A DNA stretch of 64,000 nt from Bacteroidota bacterium (GCA_030679145.1 JAUXTU010000118.1:17679-81678), one strand, 5' to 3'. Positions 8,978-43,517 are shown, counted from the stretch's first letter. Program-made: numbers and translations. Notes: generated from the letters alone by a model not told the origin.

Positions 8978-9051
8978 AATATGCTCCTACAGTTTCAAGT
9001 TAATAACCGATGTTACGCAAGATGGTTTTTTTTCGAAAAATATTGAGTTTC

Positions 9052-9127
9052 GTCATTCCAGCGTACGCTGGAATCCACGTTTTTGAGTTATTGTTGCAAG
9101 ATGGATGCCAGCTTTCGCTGGCATGGC
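9052..9127. repeat. Inverted pair of 26-bp palindromic REP-like elements (GTCAT...TCCA type)
   Basis: GTCATTCCAGCGTACGCTGGAATCCA (9052-9077) and TGGATGCCAGCTTTCGCTGGCATGGC (9102-9127); each is a hairpin and the two are inverted relative to each other. Confidence 0.8.
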
Positions 9128-28700: not shown

Positions 28701-31103
28701 CACCGGCGTCGTTGACTCTTCTTTAACTTTTAGTTTTAATAAATTTGGTTCTATCAAGAATGCAGTACTATCAGATATGTTTGTTATTGTTACTGAATCT
28801 TTGAATATGCTTAGAAGAGGTGTTGGTTGTTGGTAAATACTCCAAGATTGTAAAAAAACGTTTGACGGTTCCATTTTTTTATATGTGATTTGAAGAGTAT
28901 CATCAATATTTGCAAAAATACTGTTTTGTGTAAATAAATAATATGACCGCAGTGATCGTTGATCACTCATCCCACTCATAATTCCATTCTCATCCAGTGC
29001 AATAACCCGATAAAAAACAAACTCCGGAAATTTGTTTCCTGTTTTGAGGATAAATTTATTTGTTGTAACGGTATCAACAATAACACTATCTGCAAAAGAA
29101 AATCCTCTAATATTACTGCCAAGGATAATAAATTTATTTGGGGTTTTCCCGTTAAGATTCACATCCCACACTAATGATAAAGAATCTCCTGACTCAACGG
29201 TTCTCAAATTCAAGGGAATTCCAGGAGCATTAATTGTAAAACTCCAAGTGTTACTCCACGCGCTAAACACTCCGTCAGAATTTTTTGTTGCTACTCTCCA
29301 ATAGTACTTCGTATTGGGTACAAGCAAACCGAGCTGCGGAATCTTCCACTTATTCACGACACCATTACCTGCTTGTCGAGAGAATTTATTAAATGTCGAT
29401 GATACCGGAAAAAGAAAATCAGGACGCTCACTGACTTGAATATGATAGTCTGCAATATTGCCTGCTGAAATCCCCGATGGAATTTCCCATTGAAATTCAA
29501 ACTGAGTTGAATTAACAACACTATTATTTGGCGGGAATATTTCTTGACTTGGTGCAGGCGGCACCGTGATTGAATCGATTGAAATATACGTATGTGAATA
29601 TTGCAATCCAGAAAGATCTGATCCATCTGTACTATACAATTTGAAATCGTTTAATCCAGTTTTGAACCGAGGGAAGGCGTTCGGATTGAATTGAAAAGAA
29701 AAATCGATTGAAACTGAGTCGATGCCAAAATGCGAGGATGAATCAACCCACTCAAATTTTAAAAAGAATGCATGTGTTATCGGTGTGCCTACAGGATGTA
29801 TTTGTGAAAAGAGATTGATTGATTGTTGATCACTTCCATTTCCTAAAGGAATGAAACTAAGAATCTGTGTAAAAGTACTGTCATATTCCTTCCGAAAATA
29901 TACTCTAACATTTCCTGAACTTGTATCACTGAAATACTTGAAAAATATATTCGCATCGGTAATTGCCATTGGATTGGCACATCGAATGGTAAAACTTGAA
30001 ACTGAATTTGTGTCAATACTTTTAATGGCGCTGACAGTGTCCTGCTGTTGATGGAAAATGTTTACAGTATCAATTATTTCTTCCCAAAACGATGCTATTG
30101 ACGGTGAATAAATTTGCAATCCAAGAGATGAAGTAGGAGGTGCTTGCGGGGGATTTGAGTTAAATGATGGGTCAGTATGAAAAAACGAATAATACTGCTC
30201 CGGAAAATTCTTAAAAGGAAACTCTATTTTTTCCGATGGTCGTAAAACCAATGATATAGAATCAAGGTCGACCCACGAATAATTCCAAACATCTAAATTT
30301 GATGAGTAAAAATATGAGATCGGTGTATCTTTATATGCTTCAATGAAAGGAAAACCAAGATGATGATAGCGACGAACAATATCCTGGTCATTATCAATAT
30401 CATAAAATCCAAGAATTTTACTGTTTAGCCTGTCTTTGTAAATAACATTCATATCAGGATCAAAAAGTAGTTCTCTGCCTGACCCTAACAATACTCTGCC
30501 AATAGTATGTCGACCGCCGCCAATAATTTTTATTTGTGCATTGTATCCATAGTGCGTTAATATGGATGCCATTAATTGTGAGACATTTTCACAATACCCA
30601 CTCCCAAACGTATTGTAGGTCATAATCGGTTTTGTACGTGGATCACTGTTGGAGGAGCTTGTACTAACAAGCCAGTGGTAATAATTATTCTTTAAAAATG
30701 ATAAGACCGCTTGAAGAGTGTCTTCAACAGTGAATAAACTATCTAATGGAATTTGAGAGGTAAGATCATTAAATCCGTAGATCATGCTCTGTCCGTTAAT
30801 TTCAACTTGGGGATTTCTGATTGTACTATTCCCTGTGTTTTCAAGAACGAACTTGAGATTAGGTTCTGCACCATTCGCTCTTCCAAAATTCAGTGCACTC
30901 CCAATTGTGTCGAAAAGGGACTCCTGTTGATATCGCCTGGAAGAAAATCCATCCACTCCACCGGGCAGTGACAGACTCAAAGAGGTATCTTTTCCAAAAA
31001 CCTTCCAACTGTTTTGAATAGTTTGAGAAAACAACATATCAGTCGGTATAAGGACAAATAGACCAATGCAGAAAGAAAGTAATATGTGTTTTTTGATTAT
31101 CAT
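22713..31103 (-). CDS. Giant T9SS-secreted surface protein: transglutaminase-like domain, FN3-like domains, 18 cadherin/He_PIG-like repeats, type A CTD
   Basis: Signal peptide; GSGYCEN...GRHTIG...LFDPD; 18 repeats of NHxP...ED..Y...P.WL.ID..TG...GTP; C-terminal YQNYPNPFNPTTTIRF...SSGVYY...KKLVLIK. Confidence 0.9.
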   Translation of the reverse strand: MIIKKHILLSFCIGLFVLIPTDMLFSQTIQNSWKVFGKDTSLSLSLPGGVDGFSSRRYQQESLFDTIGSALNFGRANGAEPNLKFVLENTGNSTIRNPQVEINGQSMIYGFNDLTSQIPLDSLFTVEDTLQAVLSFLKNNYYHWLVSTSSSNSDPRTKPIMTYNTFGSGYCENVSQLMASILTHYGYNAQIKIIGGGRHTIGRVLLGSGRELLFDPDMNVIYKDRLNSKILGFYDIDNDQDIVRRYHHLGFPFIEAYKDTPISYFYSSNLDVWNYSWVDLDSISLVLRPSEKIEFPFKNFPEQYYSFFHTDPSFNSNPPQAPPTSSLGLQIYSPSIASFWEEIIDTVNIFHQQQDTVSAIKSIDTNSVSSFTIRCANPMAITDANIFFKYFSDTSSGNVRVYFRKEYDSTFTQILSFIPLGNGSDQQSINLFSQIHPVGTPITHAFFLKFEWVDSSSHFGIDSVSIDFSFQFNPNAFPRFKTGLNDFKLYSTDGSDLSGLQYSHTYISIDSITVPPAPSQEIFPPNNSVVNSTQFEFQWEIPSGISAGNIADYHIQVSERPDFLFPVSSTFNKFSRQAGNGVVNKWKIPQLGLLVPNTKYYWRVATKNSDGVFSAWSNTWSFTINAPGIPLNLRTVESGDSLSLVWDVNLNGKTPNKFIILGSNIRGFSFADSVIVDTVTTNKFILKTGNKFPEFVFYRVIALDENGIMSGMSDQRSLRSYYLFTQNSIFANIDDTLQITYKKMEPSNVFLQSWSIYQQPTPLLSIFKDSVTITNISDSTAFLIEPNLLKLKVKEESTTPVIFSGRTTTVPNFSRSAYYRKNHFPTILLDSILMLKEDSLFNISNFVTDVDGDQYSISILQLPSWLHYDSIAKTVYGTPKGENVGDTSLVVKAVDRWNTTSIKETKLIIQHTNHTPIIATLSDTLGQEDSLFTSKVYASDVDSLLFGDQLRYFLTIKPSWLSIDSITGILSGIPKPYSVGDTTLTVSVNDQNGGVVQKSFTLHILHTNHTPIFTSVADTTAIEDDVYSYKTKATDQDTLLFSDIIRYRLINKPAWISIDSVTGVISGTPRVQNLYDTLFVVEAYDNVGGLVQQQYQLYITHINHIPEIVSIGSFTVQEDSLYRYKVIVEDPDTLIGDVITYTLTKRPSWLSVNSSGLVSGIPLGKNVGDTIVTVRVSDGKGGIASQSYAIKVSHTNHSPQFVTMADTTAVEDSLYTYNVKANDQDTLLFGDNIRYRLSIKPSWLVVDSISGTIRGTPSGLNVLDTIVAVQSYDNKGGISTQQFILRVEHINHEPEFISTPITTAREDSLYTYQVTATDADQQLFGDTLHYKLSVHPSWMDIDSSTGLITGTPKGKNVGDTVVTVRVRDGKGGLILQTFSVTISHTNHAPVFVTSADTTAVEDSLYTYTVKGSDQDSALFGDVVRYRLIVKPIWLVIDSVTGIITGTPNGLNARDTIVAVQSYDNKGGVSTHSFTLTVEHINHPPLFVSAPDSIANEDSLYIGKMIFTDQDTIFNDQLHFQLIRGPTWMILDTLTGIFSGIPSAKNVGDTLLTIRAKDNNGLFVEHTLPIIVKHTNHNPIISTNTLSDAIEDSLYTTIVQASDQDSALFGDLIRYKLLIKPVWLTIDSITGTISGTASGLSAQDTTVTIQVYDDKGGFTNHSYQLAVNHTNHSPEFAYTLLSGQDSIIAQQSRTSATEDSLFSVMFNVIDPDTTLFEDRIRYSLLIHPSWLTIDSLTGRVFGLPTAKNVGDTTYRVYVTDNNGGVTVSNFPLTIHHINHIPSFVNWNPDTVTVEDEIYIQTSRATDNDTILFGDIVRYRLINKPSWLNIDSTNGTISGTPQVQNLYDTVVIVQAYDNAGGTTTQQYTLHITHVNHIPEIVSTGIFTAQEDTLYRYQVKVEDPDTLVGDVFTFTLTKKPSWLTVSSTGLISGTPRGKNVGTDSLVTVRVTDGKGGIASASYNVKVSHTNHLPQFVSIADTTAIEDSLYTYVVNATDQDTLLFGDYIRYKLLVKPLWLTIDSITGLISGTPSLIHAQDTIVAIQTFDNKGGISTQQYTLKVEHINHLPEFASNPLEQIAEDSLYSYQVIATDQDQLLFNDTLYYRLRVSPQWMSIDSTTGLITGTPRGKDVGDTAVTVRVRDGKGGVILQSFNVTVTHTNHLPVFVTSILPNAIEDTLYTTIVRASDQDSLLFGDQVKYKLVIKPTWLTIDSITGTLSGTSSGLNVRDTTVTVQAYDNKGGTINKTFVLTVQHINHSPVFVSVPDTIGKEDSVYNYRVMALDQDSLLFGDKVLFTFVQAPPFLLIDSLTGLISGIPSLVDSLSGIVMPEKKEIISLRKNHKFLLHSDEDFEKFTEGRKKEETVLNVSDTLEYRSFPMSIKASDDKNGIALQQYTLYVHHTNHAPIFTSVPIINAIEDSNYIYSINVFDRDSKNFADSLTVTPVVLPSWLHFNEDSNTVYGIPQGKNAVDTIVTLKVVDNKSGESIQSFLLNVTNVNHAPIILSSADTTTSEEFEYRYAFHPYDSDAEYGRDSLVIEFISLPSWLKFSSDTLRGVPQYDNVGDTVISLKVTDSKGSTVTQQWNLTITPTYHQPVSFTLYKQSQTDTIALDWNKDLNFLWNRSSDGDYEDTLQYTLHIWGAAVDTILNNLTDTIFAGKIMKLFKTSSRYYWTISVTDGKFTTLANDTISFITSEKVLGVAAWKLLVPTEYIVYQNYPNPFNPTTTIRFGVPKTSDVSIEIYNVIGQRIATIFEHQMDAQYQEIVWNASRYSSGVYYAVIRMKEVNALEKEHKFVKKLVLIK

Positions 31104-34467: not shown

Positions 34468-36324
34468 TTATTCAAAATATCGTTCATACCAAAGATCAAA
34501 ACTCAACAGTGTCCAAAGCATATAGTAGTAATTATACCGACCTGAAAAATGAGCATCCATTATTGAATGCACATAATCGACATTGATGAAACCGTAACGG
34601 CTCAGACGCTCTTTGCTTAAGTGTTGTTGAAGCATCGGTTTTAATTCTTTACGAAACCATTCATTCAACGGAAGATCAAATCCCTGTTTCGGACGATCAA
34701 ACAACGTTTTGGGAAGATTCTTATACAAAATCTTTTTCAATAAGTATTTCTGTTCACCATTTCTGACTTTATACTGAAGCGGTAAACCCAATCCAAATTC
34801 AACCAAACGGTAATCAAGAAAAGGTGCACGCGCTTCAAGCGATACCGCCATGCTTGTCCTGTCAACCTTCGTTAAAATATCATCAGGCAAATATGTTTTA
34901 AAATCAACCATGTTTGGGTACATCAATTCGTCAGTAACAAAGTTCCTGAAATCTTTCGTAAATAATGATGGCTGATGTACTATGTGATGGTTCATCAATT
35001 TCTGCAAATCGTTCCGTTTAAACATACCGCTCAAATAATCATAACAATCTTCAAGCGAAGAGTACTGCAGACCCTGCGCCCCTTTTTGAATAATATCGAC
35101 AGGAATTTTTTCAAAAGCATGGAAAATTGCTTTGCGGACTGCTGCCGGAATGACATTGAATGTTCGCGCAGCGGCATATTTTTTATACCGTGAATAACCC
35201 CAAAACAGTTCATCACCGGCATCGCCCGAAAGTGCAACCGTTACTTTGCTTCGAGCAAGTTTTGAAACGAGATATGTCGGGATCGATGACGGATCTGCAA
35301 ATGGTTCATCAAAATGATCTGCAAGCAGTTCGATCGAATCAAATATTTCCTCGGGACAAACGATCAATTCTTCATGATCTGTCCCCAATGCCGATGCAAC
35401 CGCTTTCGCAAAAGGAGCTTCATTATATCGATGATCGGTGAATCCAATAGAAAATGTTTTTACATGTGAACTCTGTTTTACCATTGATGAAACCACAACA
35501 CTTGAATCGATCCCGCCGCTCAAAAAAGCGCCAACCGGAACATCGCTGATCATTCGGTACCGAACGGAAGAATCGATCAATTGCTCCAGTTCGTTTTCGT
35601 AATCCTGTTCACTCCGTTCATGTCCATTCCGTTGAGAGTAAATAAGTAACGGATCCCAATATTGGTGCATTTGTAATACACCGTCGAGAGTTATCGTTAG
35701 TGTATTCCCCGGAAGTAACTTAAACATATTTTTAAATATCGTTCGGGGAGCAGCGATGTACTTGAATGCAAAATATTGTTCAACAGCACTCATATCCATT
35801 TCTTTCCGAACGTACGGATACTTTAGGATCGCTTTTATTTCAGAAGCAAAAACGAAATGTCTTTTATCAAAGTAATAGTGAAGCGGTTTAACTCCAAGCC
35901 TGTCTCGTGCAATAAATAGTATTCTCTTCTTTTCATCAAATATTGCAAAAGCAAACATTCCGTTGAACCGTTCAACGCATTGTGTCCCCCATTCATCATA
36001 CGCATGCAGAATCACTTCCGTATCACCGGTGCTGATAAACTTCCGTCCTCTCGATTCTAACTCTGCTCGAATTTCTTGGAAGTTATATATCTCACCGTTA
36101 AAAATAATTTTGGAATGGAGTGATGCTACCGACATCGGCTGATGACCAAGCGGCGACAGATCGAGAATGCTTAACCGGCGATGTCCTAATCCGATATTTC
36201 GCTCCTGCCAATAACCATGGTCATCCGGGCCGCGATACGCTATCGTATCGGTCATGGCACGAAGCACTTCTAATGAAGGCGTTTCATTCTCGACAAAAGA
36301 AATATATCCGGTGATTCCGCACAT
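34468..36324 (-). CDS. asnB: Asparagine synthase (glutamine-hydrolysing) family amidotransferase, probably glycan-modifying
   Basis: MCGITG, RGPD, GHRRLSILDL, FNGEIYN, LSGGIDSS, DEPFAD, KVDRTSMAVSLEAR.PFLD; located inside the glycan locus. Confidence 0.92.
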   Translation of the reverse strand: MCGITGYISFVENETPSLEVLRAMTDTIAYRGPDDHGYWQERNIGLGHRRLSILDLSPLGHQPMSVASLHSKIIFNGEIYNFQEIRAELESRGRKFISTGDTEVILHAYDEWGTQCVERFNGMFAFAIFDEKKRILFIARDRLGVKPLHYYFDKRHFVFASEIKAILKYPYVRKEMDMSAVEQYFAFKYIAAPRTIFKNMFKLLPGNTLTITLDGVLQMHQYWDPLLIYSQRNGHERSEQDYENELEQLIDSSVRYRMISDVPVGAFLSGGIDSSVVVSSMVKQSSHVKTFSIGFTDHRYNEAPFAKAVASALGTDHEELIVCPEEIFDSIELLADHFDEPFADPSSIPTYLVSKLARSKVTVALSGDAGDELFWGYSRYKKYAAARTFNVIPAAVRKAIFHAFEKIPVDIIQKGAQGLQYSSLEDCYDYLSGMFKRNDLQKLMNHHIVHQPSLFTKDFRNFVTDELMYPNMVDFKTYLPDDILTKVDRTSMAVSLEARAPFLDYRLVEFGLGLPLQYKVRNGEQKYLLKKILYKNLPKTLFDRPKQGFDLPLNEWFRKELKPMLQQHLSKERLSRYGFINVDYVHSIMDAHFSGRYNYYYMLWTLLSFDLWYERYFE

Positions 36325-36374
36325 TAATTGTAATATCCTATCTTATTAGCATCTCTAATAACCAAAAAATGTTT

Positions 36375-36510
36375 GTCATTGCTCCAAGGGAGTCCCTTCG
36401 GGACGAGCTGTTCTTTGGCGAAGCAATCTTGTTTTTATATCGTTAATTGAAAGATTGCTTCGGTCGCTTCCGCTTAAAAGATGGCGAACAAGTCGTTCCC
36501 TCGCAATGAC
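36375..36510. repeat. REP-like inverted pair (GTCATTGCGAG...GCAATCT / AGATTGC...CTCGCAATGAC), copy 1, with two nested insertions
   Basis: GTCATTGC[22 nt]GAGCTGTTCTTTGGCGAAGCAATCT...AGATTGCTTCGGTCGCT[24 nt]TCGTTCCCTCGCAATGAC. Confidence 0.85.
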
Positions 36511-36536
36511 ATTTTTTTTGTTTAAGAAATACATCT

Positions 36537-38051
36537 CTATGGCACAAGCGTTACACATTGTTCATACAACGATCTTGACGTACTTTGGCTTTCAGAGAAA
36601 CTTTTTGCAGTGCACTTTCTATATACGATCGGTATTGTTGGAACGATTTTTCCACCGATTGAATTGTCAATGGTTAATGTGTTTTCACAAAAGACGTTTT
36701 CCAGAATCGGTGAATCAGTGAACCGACCTATCAATAATTTTGATGACGTATTCCCCGTTACTGTAAGGTCATTTATTCGAAATCCCGAAATAATATCCAT
36801 ATTTTCTTTTTTTGGTATTACAGTATAATCTTTTCCCCAAAGCCCCCTTGATCCTATAAATTGAAGGTTTGGCGTACGGTAACTTGAATCCATATTACCA
36901 TTGATAACACCGCTGAGTGTAAAATTTTTCAATACTCTCCCTCTATCTTCAGGATCAAAATTATCCAGTGAATCCAAACGATCGAAGAATACCACATGCG
37001 AAACACTTCCCCTTCCATTGTAACGCACATCAACTTTAAGATATATTCCATCCATTATTGCAGATTGAAACAGTCCATTTCGATTCCGATATCCGTGCCA
37101 CATAATGCCGATACAATAATCCGTTCCTTCTGGATCCATTGTTGTTTCGGTATTTTGATATTCAATATTGATATTTTTTAAGAGCGGCAGACTATCCGTA
37201 TCTTGATATACATACCCATTAAGTAAAACATCCGTAGAATAGATATTATTTTTTGACACAACCCGAGCTTTAAAATCATGAATATCAGAGAGATACAACG
37301 TACGATATGCTGTATTCGACTCAATCAGATCTGCCGAAAGATTGTTCCCAGTCCGTGCGCACCTTAATACATATCCTGCATACTCTGATTTTAAAATTCC
37401 GATTTGAATATTTTTTACTTCTGTTTTCTGATTACCAATGCGGTTTAATTCGATCCCAACCGCAACATTTTTCACGGTATTATATGGCATTGATATATTT
37501 TCAGAATTACCATCAAAACCGACGAAAACAACTCCGTTCCATGTTATGCCGCCGTCATTTGTTATTTTTTTAAAATGATGACCGATGATGTGCAATCCCG
37601 TTATGCTGATATTTTTACAATCTCTAAAATGAAACAGATACCCAAAAAATCCCGGTTCGTCTCTTGTAGTATCAATCATTATGATTGCAGAATCGCCGAT
37701 GATACTCAGATTTTCTACACCCTTAAATGCAGGGAAACTTGGTCTGCTCAATGGTGAACCTTTGCTCCAGATGAAATATGTCCCTTGTGGAAAGAAAAGC
37801 GTGCAGTTTCCGGAAGCTGCAGCCAAACAAGCCTTCTTTATTGCTTCCAAATCATCGGTAACACCATCTCCCTTTGCTCCAAAATTTTTTACGCTAATTA
37901 CTGTAGTTATATTTTCCCATGAACCCTGTTCAACATTATTAATAGTAGGATTAAATGCGAGGATAGAATTATAACCAACAATTAGCAAGAGTATAAAAGA
38001 AAAAACATCACCGTATAGAATTCGAAACTTGGATTTGATGTAATGATACAT
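36537..38051 (-). CDS. Exported parallel beta-helix protein (pectate lyase 3 / GH28-related N-terminus)
   Basis: Hydrophobic N-terminal segment, then ISVKNFGAKGDGVTDDLEAIKKA...LFFPQGTY. Start placed at ATG 38051 (MYHYIK) to avoid overlap with the upstream gene. Confidence 0.75.
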   Translation of the reverse strand: MYHYIKSKFRILYGDVFSFILLLIVGYNSILAFNPTINNVEQGSWENITTVISVKNFGAKGDGVTDDLEAIKKACLAAASGNCTLFFPQGTYFIWSKGSPLSRPSFPAFKGVENLSIIGDSAIIMIDTTRDEPGFFGYLFHFRDCKNISITGLHIIGHHFKKITNDGGITWNGVVFVGFDGNSENISMPYNTVKNVAVGIELNRIGNQKTEVKNIQIGILKSEYAGYVLRCARTGNNLSADLIESNTAYRTLYLSDIHDFKARVVSKNNIYSTDVLLNGYVYQDTDSLPLLKNINIEYQNTETTMDPEGTDYCIGIMWHGYRNRNGLFQSAIMDGIYLKVDVRYNGRGSVSHVVFFDRLDSLDNFDPEDRGRVLKNFTLSGVINGNMDSSYRTPNLQFIGSRGLWGKDYTVIPKKENMDIISGFRINDLTVTGNTSSKLLIGRFTDSPILENVFCENTLTIDNSIGGKIVPTIPIVYRKCTAKSFSESQSTSRSLYEQCVTLVP

Positions 38052-38061
38052 TTTTAATAAA

Positions 38062-38787
38062 TTATTTCGTTTCATTATTCGTTTCATTTTTTCTTGAACG
38101 AATGATTTTTGCCGGAACACCTGCAACAACTGAATAGGGAGGAACATCCTTACTAACTACACTTCCCGCTGCAACAATAGAACCACGACCAACCCGAACT
38201 CCCGACAAAATAATACTGTTAGCAGCAATCCAACAATCGTCTTCAATAATTACTGTACTTCTTTCAACCCCCTGCTCTTTCATAACAACATCAGCTTCTG
38301 AAAATGCATGGTTTTCTGCATATATGCTGACACGAGGAGATATCAAAACATTGTTACCAATTTCAATATAACCAGAACAACCAATGTAATTATATGGTCC
38401 AATATTGGAATTGTTCCCGACCTTTAATCCTTCTCCTAATTCACCACCGTAAAAATTTGTCGGTCGAATAATGGCAAACCGCCCCACTGTAACGCGATTA
38501 CCAAAAACAATACCACGTCTCGATATAGATTGTATTTCGCAATAATCTTCAGCAATAAAACTTTTTCCGACATGTAAATGTTTTGCATGACGGATAATAA
38601 CACCTTTGCCGATAAGTAATATTCCTTTTGCACTTCCTAAAAAAGGAATTCTAAGTAAACCTCGAATTGCACAAACCGATAGCATCAAAAAAACACGAAG
38701 GACAGACATCCCATCCCATTCAGCATTAAACCTATTAGATGATCCCACACCACTTTTATTCAGGAGCCATTTCAATATTGACCGCAT
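38062..38787 (-). CDS. Hexapeptide-repeat (LbetaH) acyltransferase
   Basis: [40 protein letters not shown]...VAGVPAK. Confidence 0.92.
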
Positions 38788-38799
38788 TTTATTTACCCA

Positions 38800-39930
38800 C
38801 TAATTGATTATAGAAGATAACGTTTCAAATAATTTTTGTTCGCAAACTCTTTGTGAAAATCTTTTCTCAATAATATCCCTTCCTTTAAGACCCATTTGAA
38901 ATCTTTTTTCCGGCACTTTCAATAATATTTCGATAGATTCTTCCCATTCTTTATTTGTTGAGGCTAAAAAGCCGCTCTCACCATGTTCAATAATGTCTTT
39001 ATTCACTCCAACGGGGGATGCAATAGTAGGAACTCCACAAGCCATATACAATAACGCTTTATACCCGCATTTACCCCGAGACCACTCATCATCTACCAAC
39101 GGCATTACTCCAATGGTAAATTTTTTTATCTCATCAATAAAAATATCTTGTGGTATCGAATCGATTATTTCCGCTGTAAAGGTATCACTGTGAGAAAATA
39201 ATTCTCTTATTTTTTTAGACCCCATAGCACCGATAATTCTGATGGTAATGGGATACTTCTTTGAAATATTTCGAATCGGTTCTAAAAGAATTCGCAAGTG
39301 TTCAATATGCTGTTCTCCAGCACCCACCCAACCAATAATGGTTGGTGAAGGATTTATATTCTCTTCGGGAATGGTGTACTGTGATGTATCAACAGGGGTT
39401 GGGATAACTGAAATATGTGAGTTAACAGGACGCACTTTTTCGGCAAGATAACTATTTCCAGCAATGACTAATTTATAGTACGGTAACATCGAAAAGAATT
39501 TTTTTCGAATCTCATCCTTATTTGAATCTGACCATTCCGATATCCCTAACCCAGAAAACGGAACAAATAATGCGTCATCAAAATCATAAACAAGGTTTTT
39601 ATTAAGCGTTTTCAAAAAATACAACACTACCTTTGGCAATCTTGTCCGCTGTATAACAACAATATCATAAAATGGACTGGAGCATATTAACAAAATCAAT
39701 TTCCAAATCTTGAGCAAAGTATCAGATCGAAAAAACCTGTTTTTATTAAACTCTTTTATCGTTGAATCCAAATCTTTATACTCGTTGTTCCATGAAATGA
39801 CATTTACACGACAACCACGTTTCAAAAAATATGGAACGTAATTAAATACTCTAAATTTTCCACTGAGTTTATAATCTCCGGCAGTCCCTGCCGCAAGAAA
39901 AAGTACGGAGAATTTTTTAGTGTTATCCAT
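38800..39930 (-). CDS. Glycosyltransferase family 4
   Basis: YDFDDA, IGWVG, IGVMPL...GKCGYK...YMACGVP.IASPVG. Confidence 0.88.
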   Translation of the reverse strand: MDNTKKFSVLFLAAGTAGDYKLSGKFRVFNYVPYFLKRGCRVNVISWNNEYKDLDSTIKEFNKNRFFRSDTLLKIWKLILLICSSPFYDIVVIQRTRLPKVVLYFLKTLNKNLVYDFDDALFVPFSGLGISEWSDSNKDEIRKKFFSMLPYYKLVIAGNSYLAEKVRPVNSHISVIPTPVDTSQYTIPEENINPSPTIIGWVGAGEQHIEHLRILLEPIRNISKKYPITIRIIGAMGSKKIRELFSHSDTFTAEIIDSIPQDIFIDEIKKFTIGVMPLVDDEWSRGKCGYKALLYMACGVPTIASPVGVNKDIIEHGESGFLASTNKEWEESIEILLKVPEKRFQMGLKGRDIIEKRFSQRVCEQKLFETLSSIIN

Positions 39931-41123
39931 TAAGCGATTACTTCCTCAAATAATTTTTCAAAGTTTTTTGCCACAACCGTAATATCATACTGTTGTAATA
40001 TTTTTCGAAGAGCTTCTTCTCCAAACTGTTTCCTTAGCACAGATGATGATATAAGTTTGCGTATTGCTTTTCGAAGGGCTTCTTCATCTCCATAATCAAT
40101 AATAAGTCCATCAACACCCTCTTCAATAACATCCGGAACACCGCTGACACGCGTTGCAATACTCGGCAATCCGCACGCACGTGCTTCTATCAGGACATTG
40201 GGAAGTCCTTCGGATTGTGAAGGAAGAATAAATATATCGGCTGTTTGAAAATATTTCTCCCGGTCCGCAACTTGTCCCAAGAAATCAACAGTGATCTGTG
40301 ATTTTATTTCTTTTGCTTCCTTCTTTACCGAATCTTCAATAATGTTCTGGGCAAATTTTCCGCTCCCCAATACGAGTAACTCAACATTGTTGGGAACATC
40401 ATTCAAAATTGAAATCGAACGGATCAGAAAGTCGATCCCTTTATTGGCATTCAAATGACCGCAATAAAGAAGATAGATGCTCTCCTGTTTAAGACCGAGT
40501 GTCTCCCTCATCTGTTTGCGTTGTTCCGGATCGAGAGGATGAAATTTATTTGTATCAACACCGTTGTTCATTCTTCTGATGCGTTCAGGTTTAACCCCTT
40601 CTTCAATGAATCGTTTTTCGATGAATGAACTGATCGCAAGAAAACGATCGAATGCTGCATACCCTTTTTTGCGAAGAGAATAGAAAGCCGACCCTCGAAG
40701 GTTTCCTATCTCGGGTGAGAACGTCGATGCAGTTCGGACAAACGACTTTTTTCCAAACAACTTAAAGAAAAACGCAGGGATGGAAAAGTAATCAAGACCG
40801 AAAAAGAAAATGATAACGTCAAATTGTCTTAATCGGAACAGACCATAACCGATAAGTGAAAAGACGTAGAGCAAATTTTCAAGAATTGCCGGAAGTCCCT
40901 TCTCTTTTTTAAAATTGAAACTCGGTACCCGGTGAATTGGTATCGAACCAAGCATTTCATCCTTTGCTGTTCCTTTAATTCTGCTTGATACTACACGGAC
41001 TCTGTTTCCCCTTTTAATCAGCTCTTCCGCAACAAGACGCGCTTGGTTTTCTCCACCTCCCACAATGGGATAAAACCTCGGTGTTGCAATGATAATACTA
41101 TATTTTTTTTCGTCTCTCTTCAT
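39930..41123 (-). CDS. Glycosyltransferase family 4
   Basis: GGGENQ, NGVD, KGID, PSQSEGLPNVLIEA. Confidence 0.9.
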   Translation of the reverse strand: MKRDEKKYSIIIATPRFYPIVGGGENQARLVAEELIKRGNRVRVVSSRIKGTAKDEMLGSIPIHRVPSFNFKKEKGLPAILENLLYVFSLIGYGLFRLRQFDVIIFFFGLDYFSIPAFFFKLFGKKSFVRTASTFSPEIGNLRGSAFYSLRKKGYAAFDRFLAISSFIEKRFIEEGVKPERIRRMNNGVDTNKFHPLDPEQRKQMRETLGLKQESIYLLYCGHLNANKGIDFLIRSISILNDVPNNVELLVLGSGKFAQNIIEDSVKKEAKEIKSQITVDFLGQVADREKYFQTADIFILPSQSEGLPNVLIEARACGLPSIATRVSGVPDVIEEGVDGLIIDYGDEEALRKAIRKLISSSVLRKQFGEEALRKILQQYDITVVAKNFEKLFEEVIA

Positions 41124-41168
41124 GTATTATTGTATTGTATTAGAAACCATTTACAAACTCAAATCGTT

Positions 41169-41287
41169 GTCATTGCAAACTGTTCTTTGGCGAAGTCCCG
41201 CATTATGGGACTCCATAAAGCGGAGCAATCTCGTTTTTTCTTTTTATCTTAAAAAGATTGCGTCGTCGCTTCGCTCCTCGCAATGAC
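41169..41287. repeat. REP-like inverted pair, copy 2, with one nested insertion
   Basis: GTCATTGCAAACTGTTCTTTGGCGAA[30 nt]GCAATCT...AGATTGCGTCGTCGCTTCGCTCCTCGCAATGAC. Confidence 0.85.
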
Positions 41288-41307
41288 CATTTTTTTTGTA
41301 ACATCAG

Positions 41308-42630
41308 TTATAAAGTTTTTTGCAAAACGGTCTTTACTTCCGATTCAATCTCCTCCGTTGGAAGAAATGCTATGCACAACATAACGGCTACGAGACCGAA
41401 ACTTGTAAACCGAAACAGAACATTGGACCATAATGAAACAAGTATCATATTCGTGACTAATAACCATACCATGAGTTTTTCGGGTTGTTTTAGTTTCCCT
41501 GCGTTCTTCAATATCACACCTAAAAAACTCACAAATAATAGTGCATATGGAAGCCCTCGTTCAAAAATAAGCGTGAATCCTAAATTCTCATAATCAACCC
41601 AATCGAGTTTCTGACTAATAAGCCGCAGTTCTTTAAATGGAGATCCGAACAGAGTGCTTAGTATCGTACGATCGAATGCAATGCTTCCCAAAATATCCCA
41701 CGTATCAATGCGCGTAGAAAATGTATCTGTCAGCGCCATATAGATTATAATATTTTCTATGATCACGTTAATGTAAAAGAACAATACTGCTAAAACAGAA
41801 ATGCCGACAAATCTTTTGAAGTTCTTTGAATATGTTGATAAGATAAAGAAAAAAAATACACCAGTGACAAAGATAGCGATCATTCCGAAACGAGAAGTAT
41901 TGAGCAACGAAGAGACAGCAACGAAGCCCATTAACACAAGAAAATATTTATTTTTGCGTTCCGTAGCAAAATATGTATACCCAAAAAGTAAAAAATAAAA
42001 CGGCAGCTGGGTTCCCCAATGATTATGCTGACCTAGCATTCCGCTAAAGGTCATTTGAAAAGGTATGTTCAATTGATTAAAAAAGAAATCGATCTGGAGA
42101 CGATCTGATAATTCTAACGCTGGAAAATATTCTAATGTTTTGTTAGCAGTGTTCCAATCATAGGAATTAACAATGAAATCACTAAAGTAGAAGGACTCAT
42201 AAATTGAAAATACTAACTGGACTAAAAACAATACACTCATTGCATAGACAAATTTCAATTCGATCGCTTTTCGTTGGGTTGGATTTGTTCTAAGAAAGAA
42301 TGCAATAATACCAAGTGCAACAGGAATGCTATAATGGCGACCCAGAAATGAGAGCAGACCATATCCATCCCTCACCAGATTAATGAATCCCATGAATATA
42401 TAGATCAAACAGATCCATACAAAAAAACGGATTACGGTGTTATCGGTTTGTCGAGGTATTCTGATGCTTGAAAGTATAAAGATTGTTGCAAATAAATAGT
42501 TTAATAGAACAACATCAAAAGGAAGTTGAAACGCAACAATATTTAACAGCAGTGGAGTAAAAAATACCGCAACAAGCAAGACTATTGATGTATGGTATGA
42601 TGGTAACGCTCTATTCTCAGTAATGCTCAT
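41308..42630 (-). CDS. Polytopic membrane protein, probable Wzy polymerase / O-antigen ligase-like
   Basis: Many TM segments; NTSRFG and FSTRIDTW loops; E.G..Y motif; position among glycosyltransferases. Confidence 0.7.
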   Translation of the reverse strand: MSITENRALPSYHTSIVLLVAVFFTPLLLNIVAFQLPFDVVLLNYLFATIFILSSIRIPRQTDNTVIRFFVWICLIYIFMGFINLVRDGYGLLSFLGRHYSIPVALGIIAFFLRTNPTQRKAIELKFVYAMSVLFLVQLVFSIYESFYFSDFIVNSYDWNTANKTLEYFPALELSDRLQIDFFFNQLNIPFQMTFSGMLGQHNHWGTQLPFYFLLFGYTYFATERKNKYFLVLMGFVAVSSLLNTSRFGMIAIFVTGVFFFFILSTYSKNFKRFVGISVLAVLFFYINVIIENIIIYMALTDTFSTRIDTWDILGSIAFDRTILSTLFGSPFKELRLISQKLDWVDYENLGFTLIFERGLPYALLFVSFLGVILKNAGKLKQPEKLMVWLLVTNMILVSLWSNVLFRFTSFGLVAVMLCIAFLPTEEIESEVKTVLQKTL

Positions 42631-42683
42631 GAACTATATTTTTTTCTTTGATCTATAATCACGATTTAAAACAGTGACATCAT

Positions 42684-43517
42684 TTACGGTTTTGATGCGA
42701 TGATATAAATGTTCGTTAATTGCAGCCAGGATCCGATCTTTTTTTGCATTTTCCGTGAAGGTATCATTAAAATCATCTTTTCAATCCATGTCACAACGCC
42801 GACTCGAACTAATCCAATATGAAAAAGAATATCGTTGAGTCTAAATATCCTTCGTAAAATAATTTGAGTGTTAATTTTTTTAAATCCTCCTTTTTGGAGA
42901 AGTGCTGCCAAGTCCCAATACATATATTCTTTCATGTGAAATCCGGTTGGATAGTCGTCGAAATATTTAGAGATGTCATGGGGACCGGTAAGTCCATGAG
43001 GGGTTACAATGAATATTTTCCCGCCGGGTTTCAGGTGGCTATACATGCAGTGGATATGTTCATCAACCTCATCCGGATGAAGATGTTCGATAAGATGGAG
43101 AGAATAGATCAGGTCGAACTGTTGATTATCCAAGGCAAACGATGCGACATCACTTTCTACCAAATGGACATTGGGCAGAAAAGATTTTATGGACTTCGCA
43201 ACTGTAACATCTAGCCCCGTCACCGAAGCAACAAGCGGGCTTACATATTGTAACATTTTCCCCGAACCGCAGCCCAACTCCAAGACGTCAGCATTCGGAC
43301 GCAGCAATGGGCGAAGAAAAGAAAGGTAAAATTCTGCCTCTCGCGCATATTCTTCGTCGCTTTTATTTCGCGAAATATGCCACGGAATTTCTTCATAGAG
43401 CGTGCGGTACGCATTCCCAACAATCTGTTTTCGGTCTTTAGGATCACTGTTGCGGATCTGATCGGCAAGTTTTCTTTCTAATAGATAATGCTTTTTGATC
43501 TTTTCTTCTTCTGTCAT
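42684..43517 (-). CDS. Class I SAM-dependent methyltransferase
   Basis: VLELGCGSG, FDLIYS.HLIEHL, LKPGG. Confidence 0.9.
   Translation of the reverse strand: MTEEEKIKKHYLLERKLADQIRNSDPKDRKQIVGNAYRTLYEEIPWHISRNKSDEEYAREAEFYLSFLRPLLRPNADVLELGCGSGKMLQYVSPLVASVTGLDVTVAKSIKSFLPNVHLVESDVASFALDNQQFDLIYSLHLIEHLHPDEVDEHIHCMYSHLKPGGKIFIVTPHGLTGPHDISKYFDDYPTGFHMKEYMYWDLAALLQKGGFKKINTQIILRRIFRLNDILFHIGLVRVGVVTWIEKMILMIPSRKMQKKIGSWLQLTNIYIIASKP

Follow-up and report, generated by a model that had tools for sequence, protein, structure and literature searches.

The window analysed here, a 64,000-nucleotide stretch of the genome of a groundwater Bacteroidota bacterium (GCA_030679145.1, JAUXTU010000118.1:17679-81678), carries two small insertions that are copies of one gene-less double hairpin of 22-30 nt. 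Both are nested in hairpin repeats of another family, which here form two doublets. The left half of the first doublet (36375..36429, + strand) is a family-1 unit, GTCATTG...GAAGCAATCT, with a length of 55 nt instead of the 33 nt of the empty form because a 22-nt insert lies inside it. The right half is inverted (36452..36510, - strand) and corresponds to the 59-nt form of the host unit (row C108 - 30750). Within it lies a different nested hairpin insert of 24 nt (36469..36492; repeat-strand reading CTTGTTCGCCATCTTTTAAGCGGA), which makes up the difference between the 59-nt and 35-nt host-unit forms, its limits having been set by eye from the 35-, 57- and 59-nt host-unit rows. The whole doublet (36370-36515) has a predicted fold of -27.8 kcal/mol (z -5.0). 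In the second doublet, the left half (41169..41231, + strand) measures 63 nt because a 30-nt insert lies inside it, and empty relatives of this half were found; the right half (41255..41287, - strand) is a 33-nt empty host unit (row C108 - 25973), and contigs from two other runs of the same study stack on exactly 41255-41287.

Anatomy and boundaries of the inserts

The insert of the first doublet (36382..36403, + strand) belongs to a short-loop class and reads [CTCC-AAG-GGAG][TCCC-TTC-GGGA], and that of the second (41196..41225, - strand) belongs to a long-loop class with the minus-strand reading [CTCC-GCTTTAT-GGAG][TCCC-ATAATGC-GGGA]. The original prediction had placed them at 36383-36404 (+) and 41195-41224 (-). 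Both of its strings are present there as quoted and its limits are roughly right, but the best boundaries are shifted by one base: we read the insert as [N1N2CC...GGGA], one base further left, because copies that start with T are followed by C. With CTCC copies either boundary fits equally well, since a C stands on both sides.

The 22- and 30-nt inserts are two size classes of one element, which consists of two adjoining hairpins of 4-5 bp, [NNCC-RAR-GGNN][TCCC-YTY-GGGA], with units of either 11+11 nt (triloops) or 15+15 nt (longer loops) and zero spacer. This arrangement replaces the long arm (AAGGG/CCCTT) that had been proposed as the conserved stem: the stems of the two short adjacent hairpins always pair. 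A long-arm hairpin was rejected for the 22-nt class, in which loop-to-loop complementarity is often broken (for example GAA with TTT, or AAA with TTC). When both outer stem pairs were left free in the search pattern, all 20 of 20 matches were complementary, with the stems TCCC, CTCC, TGCC, TTCC and TACC; 22 strict loci add TCAC and TGTC, and other genomes CCCC, CACC and CGCC. In the TCCC/TCCC form the 22 nt make an almost perfect palindrome. The order of the units is equally strict, as abutting triloop hairpins run from purine loop to pyrimidine loop 19 times and never in the reverse order or in either same-type order, with a chance expectation of ~0.1 by our own estimate from 669 and 657 monomers. 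The predicted fold of the 30-nt insert is -9.5 kcal/mol (z -5.1). For the 22-mer alone no stable fold is predicted (-3.7 kcal/mol, z -0.64, not significant), and the structural case therefore rests on covariation. The 8-mer core GGAGTCCC is weak by itself: it occurs three times in the window against 0.52 expected, a number reached in 2 of 100 shuffles, and the third match, at 30917, is unrelated to the element.

Compensatory changes that preserve stem pairing would also be expected if selection, and not insertion, made the double hairpin recur as a structural motif with a function, for example as a site bound by a protein, a terminator or a hairpin for RNA stability. The mostly intergenic position of the copies (at 26 of 28 loci, open frames across the element stay within 141 aa) would suit such a motif as well. 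We nevertheless consider this very improbable, given the exact 22- and 30-nt differences between otherwise near-identical sequences and the near-identity of the element across phyla in unrelated flanks. Moreover, a T run after the element is absent, and Rfam gave zero matches in window positions 35000-43000 at E up to 1.

Filled and empty alleles and the choice of site

A search of the 3.83-Mb genome for TCC-N-GGAGTCCC-N-GGGAC, with tabulation of the 5' flanks, returned eight occurrences. Six are of the 22-nt form, following GTCATTGC (in one case GTCATTAC) and preceding GAG or GAA, and two are of the 30-nt form, between AGATTGC and TTCG. Under strict criteria the whole family numbers 22 loci of the 22-nt class and 6 of the 30-nt class in this genome. 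In-silico excision of 22 nt gave junction-spanning empty matches for 19 of the 22 strict loci (three with a 1-nt gap at a run of T or G; those for C71 and C94 are short or weak) and none for C14, C25 and C43, and excision of 30 nt gave such matches for 6/6 loci. The empty relatives of the 36375-36429 unit are 93-97% identical to it over the junction, and the empty host sequence GTCATTGCGAG is present 70 times on both strands together, in addition to 33-nt empty halves. The central claim of the original prediction, a discrete oriented mini-element lying in another hairpin-repeat family, with empty host alleles and without target duplication, is thus borne out by filled and empty copies alike.

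Within this genome the element has at least 10 differing junctions, and the loci with clean empty matches cover more than 10 unrelated contexts. At least six host subfamilies carry the subtype found in the window, all of them with empty members as well, and the carriers have no more than 7 and 4 nt of flank in common. These observations bear on the idea that the insert is not self-mobile, and that it entered the host repeat once and was then spread passively by composite multiplication or gene conversion. Within the genus all CTCC-type copies do occupy one host position, GTCATTG^CGAG, and host copies could supply the homology for conversion; however, the variety of carrier subfamilies and the shortness of their common flanks make this an improbable account, and copies outside host repeats, which are found in this genome, in another genome (G086) and in 121 of 126 cross-phylum instances, count against it as well. 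The 20 relatives matched just the repeat part of window positions 35800-37000, so that with flanking genes unmatched in all 20 an empty-site comparison was impossible. The stretch is present in one sequencing run only, probably the source run, and contigs of three runs have zero left-out or inserted letters at both sites, which, coming from a single sample, is uninformative either way.

The element extends far beyond this genome. The pattern was found in 17/20 genomes of the genus and in 46/301 genomes of the phylum, compared with three single hits for a reversed-pattern control in the same 301; one genome has 219 strand hits. At least 125 stretches, spread over many phyla, contain the palindromic form, with mostly unrelated flanks.

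The wider sample also changes the view of the target. Insertion exactly 3' of ATTGC had been predicted, and GTCATTG^C does precede 8/8 strict copies here, as well as copies in three other species of the genus. In two other genera, however, nine copies of the same CTCC/GGAG subtype, several of them in tRNA T-loops, follow ...GATTC, ...GGCTC, ...AGTTC, ...TTTTC or ...GCCAC. The ATTGC rule is confined to CTCC/GGAG copies of this genus and is not element-wide; a fixed pentanucleotide, for which the prediction had itself demanded constant 5' flanks in further copies, fails because the flanks vary across genera and among the 10 or more junctions in this genome. A fixed target motif of any kind was likewise rejected, as position -1 is G in 60/126 instances and just 5/126 lie at ATTG^C or G^CAAT. 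There is a weak preference for G at -1 or C at +1 (88/126 instances, against an unbiased-base expectation of ~44% that is an estimate and not simulated). Of 124 junctions, 13 fall between flank stems of at least 6 bp, compared with 2.3 when flanks are permuted (maximum 7 in 200 permutations), which is a tendency towards hairpin loops and was dismissed as a rule. The places of insertion include stems and loops of GTCAT...ATCY repeats, tRNA T-loops, attC-like sites and other stem-loops. By splitting or lengthening other repeats, tRNA remnants and attC-like sites, the inserts mislead repeat classification and gene calling.

Candidate enzymes

The genome encodes a 152-residue protein, P0001, with the motifs DHIH, NWQ and YIKRQKEHH. 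By these motifs, compared by eye, its size and its low copy number (two paralogues in the genome, 54% identity), it fits the TnpA-Y1 subclass 1.2, which the relevant part of PMC6006769 characterizes by DH[IV]H, WQ and Y---Q--HH (YIKNQKEHH), a length of ~148 aa and low copy number, with members mainly from Cyanobacteria and Bacteroidetes. In that part of the source the describers found neither IS ends nor REPs with this subclass and present it as devoid of IS features, and no later study of it was among those listed by our literature search. The protein scores 68.9 bits with the IS200/IS605 family profile (cut-off 55) and 29.2 bits with the REP-associated model (cut-off 80). Two hairpins, [TGCC-GAA-GGCA] and [TCCC-TTC-GGGA], border a Y1 gene at C10:1748-2203, and a 22-mer uniting exactly those two is present at C71. 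Across 30 homologous Y1 loci the density of triloop hairpins is 10.25 per kb in the flanks and 2.81 per kb in the rest of the loci; upstream loops are GAA in 9 cases and TTC in 3, downstream loops TTC in 16 and GAA in 5, and the downstream hairpins recur near +7 and +58 past the stop codon. In one genome (G281) a Y1 gene has whole double hairpins on both sides.

Since hairpins of this kind, with unchanged polarity, also flank the small Y1 genes of subclass 1.2, mobilization in trans by an HUH enzyme, as originally suggested, is plausible though unproven; these genes make a reasonable candidate, and the link is circumstantial. Our preferred explanation is that the inserts are copies of a mobile element made of just two inverted mini-hairpins without a spacer, and hence in effect a minimal REPIN-like doublet, which would enter without target duplication, often where the DNA can extrude as a hairpin. 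A host-encoded, IS200-like HUH-Y1 enzyme of subclass 1.2 would act on it in trans on single-stranded DNA. Genes of this subclass have a GAA-type loop at their left border and a TTC-type loop at their right, and the double hairpin corresponds to the outer left hairpin fused directly to the outer right one. For this account as a whole, with the Y1 as the most likely mover, we judge the case to be evenly balanced; that the element continues to move, that it does so as single-stranded DNA and that this Y1 moves it are points that we infer. More tentatively, and with rather more doubt than belief, the 22-nt double hairpin could be the natural substrate of the orphan subclass 1.2 and the smallest known transposable unit, made up of nothing but the two end hairpins from the borders of that gene and moved as single-stranded DNA into hairpin loops across many phyla.

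Several observations sit less easily with the Y1 link. The conserved CTATAAAC/TTTATAG motif, which Y1 genes have between their outer hairpins (TT[AG]TAG is ~8 nt on the inner side of the hairpin), is missing from the double hairpin and counts against it. The terminal position of the hairpins and the variable 5' target, both departures from IS608-type elements, weigh in the same direction, as does the absence of a predicted stable fold for the 22-mer alone. The phyletic fit between element and Y1 genes is loose: P0001-like genes occur in 29/46 genomes with the element and 94/255 without it (a hand tally over related, not independent, genomes), two genus genomes with 12 and 8 strand hits have just weak Y1 matches, a 1.1-Mb Patescibacteria genome with several element copies shows only a classical IS200-type Y1, and G102 has the full Y1 architecture yet no double hairpin.

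The composition of the double hairpin, which joins the outer left and outer right hairpins of Y1 loci in the same order, could alternatively mean that it is a footprint and not a transposon, namely the outer hairpins that remain once an element with a Y1 gene, or just the inner portion of it, has been excised. The inner TTTATAG modules are indeed not amplified here (6 matches in the genome, 3 of them at Y1 genes). It seems quite unlikely, however, that >100 loci would arise in this way in a genome with only 4 such Y1 genes. At the many sites inside 33-nt repeats or T-loops, a 0.6-kb element would need to have entered and exited each time, and in the loci examined no Y1 borders correspond to the 30-nt class.

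The presence of the element in genomes where subclass 1.2 Y1 was not seen would also be compatible with a mobile element whose mover is not a Y1, such as a small Ssn-like GIY-YIG nuclease together with host ligation or repair, or an unrecognized enzyme. Four small GIY-YIG genes of this genome have at their borders the GTCAT...ATCY hairpin repeats in which the element is lodged, two small GIY-YIG genes in G086 alternate with three double hairpins, and Ssn enzymes are described, in the part of PMC11893778 concerned with cleavage, as cutting single-stranded DNA beside such hairpins. None of the GIY-YIG genes of this genome, however, is bordered by the double hairpin itself, and the location of the G086 copies next to such genes may simply reflect tandem duplication, because they sit in duplicated pieces of tRNA-Pro, within the anticodon arm. 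The same part of PMC11893778 places the SsnA cut outside the repeat, a few bases to its upstream side, and reports no joining activity; SsnA as the inserting enzyme was ruled out by this cut site outside the repeat. We regard a mover other than Y1 as rather unlikely. If the Y1 link is true, it would provide a substrate and a role for a widespread HUH-Y1 subclass described, in the section of PMC6006769 devoted to it, as lacking IS ends and REPs. It would also set 22 nt as the lower size limit for a mobile DNA element and give the nested mini-repeats that recur in uncultured bacteria a mechanism open to testing, and an enzyme recognizing an 11-nt hairpin in single-stranded DNA would be a potential tool.

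Relation to known repeats and mobile elements

The host repeat resembles the Ssn-related motifs (SRM) and the Neisseria NTS-dRS3 repeats, to judge from their outline in PMC11893778, in its GTCAT tag, palindrome and ATCY tail, yet it fails the search string given there, HGTCWYN(0-2)YYVSBRHN(0-5)WNVSBRGN(0-2)RNCYNB. None of the four halves of the host family GTCATTGCGAG...GCAATCT matches, two of them having been tested with the inserts in place. The string has 49 matches elsewhere in the genome, 30 of which are GTCATTCCCG, and one in the window (9051-9078). The double hairpin itself is unrelated to SRM, and among the papers listed by a sequence-based literature search none describes the host repeat as a bacterial repeat.

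A close parallel in organization is offered by the REP/REPIN-RAYT systems, which, in the portions of PMC3116915, PMC3733652 and PMC6006769 that describe them, comprise short, dispersed, non-coding intergenic hairpin units in inverted pairs; the same units border a low-copy Y1 gene, and an HUH enzyme is presumed to act in trans. Inverted doublets able to form a larger hairpin, as in REPINs, are present here as 19 abutting doublets in a single order. For a cognate Y1 gene bordered by the same units the observations point both ways: such hairpins flank the C10 gene as well as many of the 30 homologous genes, and whole doublets flank the G281 gene, yet the score with the REP-associated model is well below its cut-off and co-occurrence across genomes is loose. 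The element differs in having units of 11-15 nt with 4-5 bp stems, compared with 20-40 nt for REP units, in lacking a spacer between units, in being nested in other repeats and in being present in many phyla. The REP search rule set out in PMC6006769 asks for a basal stem of 7-20 nt, paired throughout, with a GT[AG]G tag 0-2 nt to its 5' side; when it was applied to the element, the stems were 4-5 bp and GTAG was absent from the hairpin foot. The bordering gene is of class 1 (subclass 1.2, Y---Q--HH) and not of class 2 (Y---NP) as these are distinguished in the same source's classification.

With IS200/IS605 elements and their miniature derivatives, the element shares a hairpin at each end, a left/right polarity on one strand, the absence of target duplication and an associated Y1 HUH protein that scores as IS200/IS605 family. 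Its left and right hairpins are distinct (purine loop 5', pyrimidine loop 3'). It differs in having neither subterminal spacers nor guide tetranucleotides, and in place of a fixed 4-5 nt target its 5' flank is varied, though there is no duplication. Its hairpins are terminal and not subterminal, unlike those of IS608-type elements with their fixed 5' target, as far as these are treated in PMC6006769, and the Y1 gene here is low-copy, in a subclass to which the same treatment ascribes no IS features.

A more distant analogy is found in the mitochondria of fungi and sponges, whose double-hairpin and repetitive hairpin-forming elements, in the part of PMC2800124 that covers them and cites the Allomyces double-hairpin work, likewise consist of two adjoining dispersed hairpins in spacers and tolerant parts of RNA genes, and are inferred to be mobile by an enzyme that is not known. 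They are organellar, AT-rich or longer and have no sequence relation to the element, and the likeness is one of analogy only. A sequence-based literature search found no description of the insert. The small dispersed repeats of cyanobacteria, the subject of work by Elhai and colleagues in 2008, are reportedly hairpin-forming sequences of 21-27 nt that are nested in each other and in larger repeats and show compensatory changes, and their mobility is said to have been inferred with no enzyme known. In these respects they resemble the double hairpin. If the Y1 link is true, the same enzyme class would account for these long-unexplained 'very small mobile repeats'. One Synechococcus assembly carries the double hairpin.

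A double hairpin nested in a hairpin repeat

Contig C108, which contains the window, belongs to an assembly of 3.83 Mb in 123 contigs (39.7% G+C), and a groundwater metagenome is the only run holding the window's stretch. Both insert sites lie in short intergenic gaps between same-strand genes of a polysaccharide cluster, with genes for asparagine synthase, a pectate-lyase-like protein, a hexapeptide transferase and two glycosyltransferases as neighbours. In each gap, two units of a 33-nt hairpin repeat, GTCATTGCGAG...GAAGCAATCT, stand as an inverted doublet (36375-36429 with 36452-36510; 41169-41231 with 41255-41287). Contigs from two further runs belonging to this groundwater study stack precisely on the 33-nt unit at 41255-41287, reaching summed depths of 2149 and 1243, versus ~10 for the neighbouring sequence; the host repeat is thus common to many organisms in that groundwater. 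At 36469-36492 lies a nested insert of a third kind: a hairpin of 24 nt, reading CTTGTYCGCC...GGCGGA on the repeat's strand, that converts host units of 33/35 nt into units of 57/59 nt, about ten of which are present in the genome-wide listing.

A strict pattern built on the inserts has eight copies genome-wide, each with the 5' flank ATTGC except for one with ATTAC; the occurrence of the 8-mer core by itself in the window is not significant. When all host halves are listed, many empty 33- and 35-nt forms stand alongside longer ones. A looser scan revealed the two inserts to be members of a wider family and, when the outer stem pairs were left free in the search pattern, 20/20 matches proved complementary. 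The strict 22-nt search returned 22 loci of the form [N1N2CC-loop-GGN2'N1'][stem-loop-stem], with stems TCCC, CTCC, TGCC, TTCC, TACC, TCAC and TGTC. Empty alleles were sought by cutting out exactly 22 nt, joining the flanks and searching elsewhere in the genome for matches spanning the junction. Such matches were found for 19 of the 22 loci, the best including 100% identity over 51, 35 and 31 nt and two being weak, and none was found in the same genome for the loci on C14, C25 and C43. The 30-nt class has the same outer stems, with 7-nt loops, each the inverted copy of the other, and all six of its strict loci have empty matches (up to 100% over 50 nt). No target duplication was seen at the junctions of either class. 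We are highly confident that the double hairpin is a real, discrete insertion.

The conserved part of this insertion is two short adjacent hairpins. Both strings quoted in the original prediction are present letter for letter, but their limits shift one base to the left, because copies that begin with T have a C directly after their last base. The longer arm of the original description does not hold up as the conserved stem either, since the loops of the 22-nt class are often non-complementary to each other and the short stems always pair. Abutting triloop hairpins occur 19 times in the genome in the order purine loop then pyrimidine loop and never in another order; from the 669 and 657 monomers of the two kinds, an estimated ~0.1 abutting pairs would be expected by chance. 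Through this fixed order the element has a polarity that is identical whichever strand is read. Energy-model folding is unsupported for the 22-mer (z -0.64) and supported for the 30-mer (z -5.1).

Insertion sites and distribution

Among the 22 strict loci of this genome, the junction (insertion point marked ^) is GTCATTG^CGAG at nine, GTCATKCCCG^AATG at three, and GCGAAG^CAATCT and CGACGAG^GAATCCC at one each; the other eight lie in further contexts, several of them loops of unrelated stem-loops. The CTCC/GGAG subtype, the form seen in the window, occupies GTCATTG^C in this genome and in three further species of its genus. Nine copies of this subtype from two different genera follow GATTC, GGCTC, AGTTC, TTTTC or GCCAC, and several of these interrupt a tRNA T-loop at TTC^GAA. 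For the palindromic subtype, ATTG^C or G^CAAT accounts for only 5 of 126 cross-phylum instances among the matches listed, in which G stands at -1 in 60 and C at +1 in 50. Insertion 3' of ATTGC, as originally put forward, is thus a local pattern: the junctions vary across genomes, and the target is not a pentanucleotide. Also among the matches listed, stems of at least 6 bp flank the junction in 13 of 124 cases, compared with 2.3 when the flanks are permuted. Insertion follows a weak base preference, with a tendency toward hairpins.

At L150, L245, L246, L247 and L248, T-loop-like sequences (GGATTC^GAACC) are split by double hairpins; at L246 the interrupted copy sits beside another copy of that tRNA 3' end without an interruption. 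At L044 and L181, which are one place in genome G086, and at L241 in G023, the sequence reads GTCATTG[double hairpin]CAATCT or CAATGA, everything between the host unit's two insertion sites being absent, which is the arrangement expected if two inserts within a single unit had recombined. One host-repeat half elsewhere in G086, near L054, carries double hairpins at both sites.

Of 20 genomes from the genus, 17 contain the pattern and none gives a match to a reversed-pattern control; of 301 sampled from the phylum, 46 contain it, against three single matches for the control. Within the phylum, occurrences cluster in the class that includes the window and in one other family, and three families represented by 63, 22 and 16 genomes in the sample gave no match. 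A genome from the same family as this one carries 219 strand hits with very varied flanks. A scan of all species genomes gave at least 125 stretches with the pattern, the titles of those listed including Bacteroidota (among them Ignavibacteria and Chitinophagaceae), Calditrichia, Kryptoniota, Desantisbacteria, several Patescibacteria, Nitrospiraceae, Neomarinimicrobiota, a Synechococcus and others. In a same-genus genome, locus L238 (G007:C37:1-10500) is a one-directional array of ORFs separated by a ~100-nt repeat (copies at 85, 1155, 2565, 3461, 4273, 5429 and 9573). Every copy contains the same double hairpin, [CCCC-AAA-GGGG][TCCC-TTT-GGGA], and six of the seven shown end in CCGTTAG or CCGTTAT, which resembles in sequence the GTTRRRY terminus of attC sites. 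L238 looks like a cassette array of the integron type whose recombination sites contain the element as a nested insert.

A candidate Y1 transposase

Seven Y1 (PF01797) matches are present in the genome. The gene for one product, P0001 (C10:1748-2203), is bordered by inverted ~70-nt modules whose outer hairpins, TGCC-GAA-GGCA on the left and TCCC-TTC-GGGA on the right, when joined give a 22-mer present at C71. Profile scoring places P0001 in the IS200/IS605 family and under the cut-off of the REP-associated model, and its motifs DHIH, NWQ and YIKRQKEHH fit subclass 1.2 of TnpA-Y1. Quentin et al. 2018 (PMC6006769) describe this subclass as low-copy, generally without IS200-type end structures, not REP-associated, and hosted by Cyanobacteria and Bacteroidetes; our search found no later work on it. 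At 30 homologous loci of the phylum, the density of triloop hairpins in the 140-nt flanks is 3.6 times that of the remaining locus, GAA loops lie mostly upstream and TTC loops mostly downstream, and hairpins recur near +7 and +58 past the stop codon. Several loci have the full set ATCCC-GAA-GGGAT ... ACCCC-GAA-GGGGT, gene, ACCCC-TTC-GGGGT ... ATCCC-TTC-GGGAT, and a subclass-1.2-like gene in genome G281 has a complete double hairpin within a repeated module on either side.

Other observations speak against a link between this enzyme and the element. The TTTATAG/CTATAAAC motif, conserved inside the outer hairpins of the Y1 loci, is absent from the double hairpin; it occurs at six places in this genome, three of them at two Y1 genes. 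P0001-like genes are found in 29 of 46 element-bearing genomes versus 94 of 255 without the element, by a hand tally over related genomes. Two complete same-genus genomes with the element have weak Y1 matches only, a classical IS200-type gene alone was found in a small Patescibacteria genome with several copies, and one genome has the full Y1 gene architecture and no double hairpin. Movement of the element by a Y1 route has close to an even chance, if anything slightly under.

Outside the window, a class-2 (RAYT-like) Y1 gene (C91:5558-5809) lies between GTAGCCTCGACC-TTTAC-GGTCGAGG units; the adjoining upstream CCGCAACC hairpin has a degenerate double hairpin in its loop, and the downstream copy is empty. 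A classical IS200/IS605 tnpA is truncated by contig ends at three places, C83, C110 and C74, suggesting that an insertion sequence present in several copies interrupted the assembly.

Relation to known repeats and GIY-YIG genes

The double hairpin works as a REPIN does, yet lacks the GTAG tag and has very short stems; it likewise resembles a minimal IS200-type derivative, yet has no fixed target. It fails the defining tests of both. We presume a likeness to cyanobacterial small dispersed repeats. No description of the host-repeat or insert sequence was found in the searchable literature.

All hosts have a GTCAT tag, a palindrome and an ATCY tail, and four small GIY-YIG genes in this genome have GTCAT...ATCY hairpins on both sides. 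Both features match the Ssn/NTS system, for which Chenal et al. 2025 (PMC11893778) describe a GIY-YIG enzyme of 94 aa that binds CGTCATTCCCGCG...GCGGGAATCY in single-stranded form, its cut falling a few bases upstream of the repeat. The published search string for the Ssn-related motif (SRM), which has 49 sites in this genome, matches none of the four host halves here, two of them tested with inserts in place; the host is thus SRM-like rather than a demonstrated SRM. The string's sole match in the window is CGTCATTCCAGCGTACGCTGGAATCCAC at 9051-9078.

Small GIY-YIG genes also occur beside tRNA sequences. At L054 (G086:C25, 1247-2198), two tandem units come after an intact tRNA-Pro(GGG) gene. 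Both units consist of a shortened copy of this tRNA, whose anticodon arm contains a double hairpin, and a GIY-YIG gene with an 86-aa frame. A second type of small GIY-YIG gene is present twice in the window's own genome, at C59:17842-18045 and C78:14034-14237, both outside the window; these two genes lie between or inside tRNA-like sequences rather than between GTCAT hairpins.
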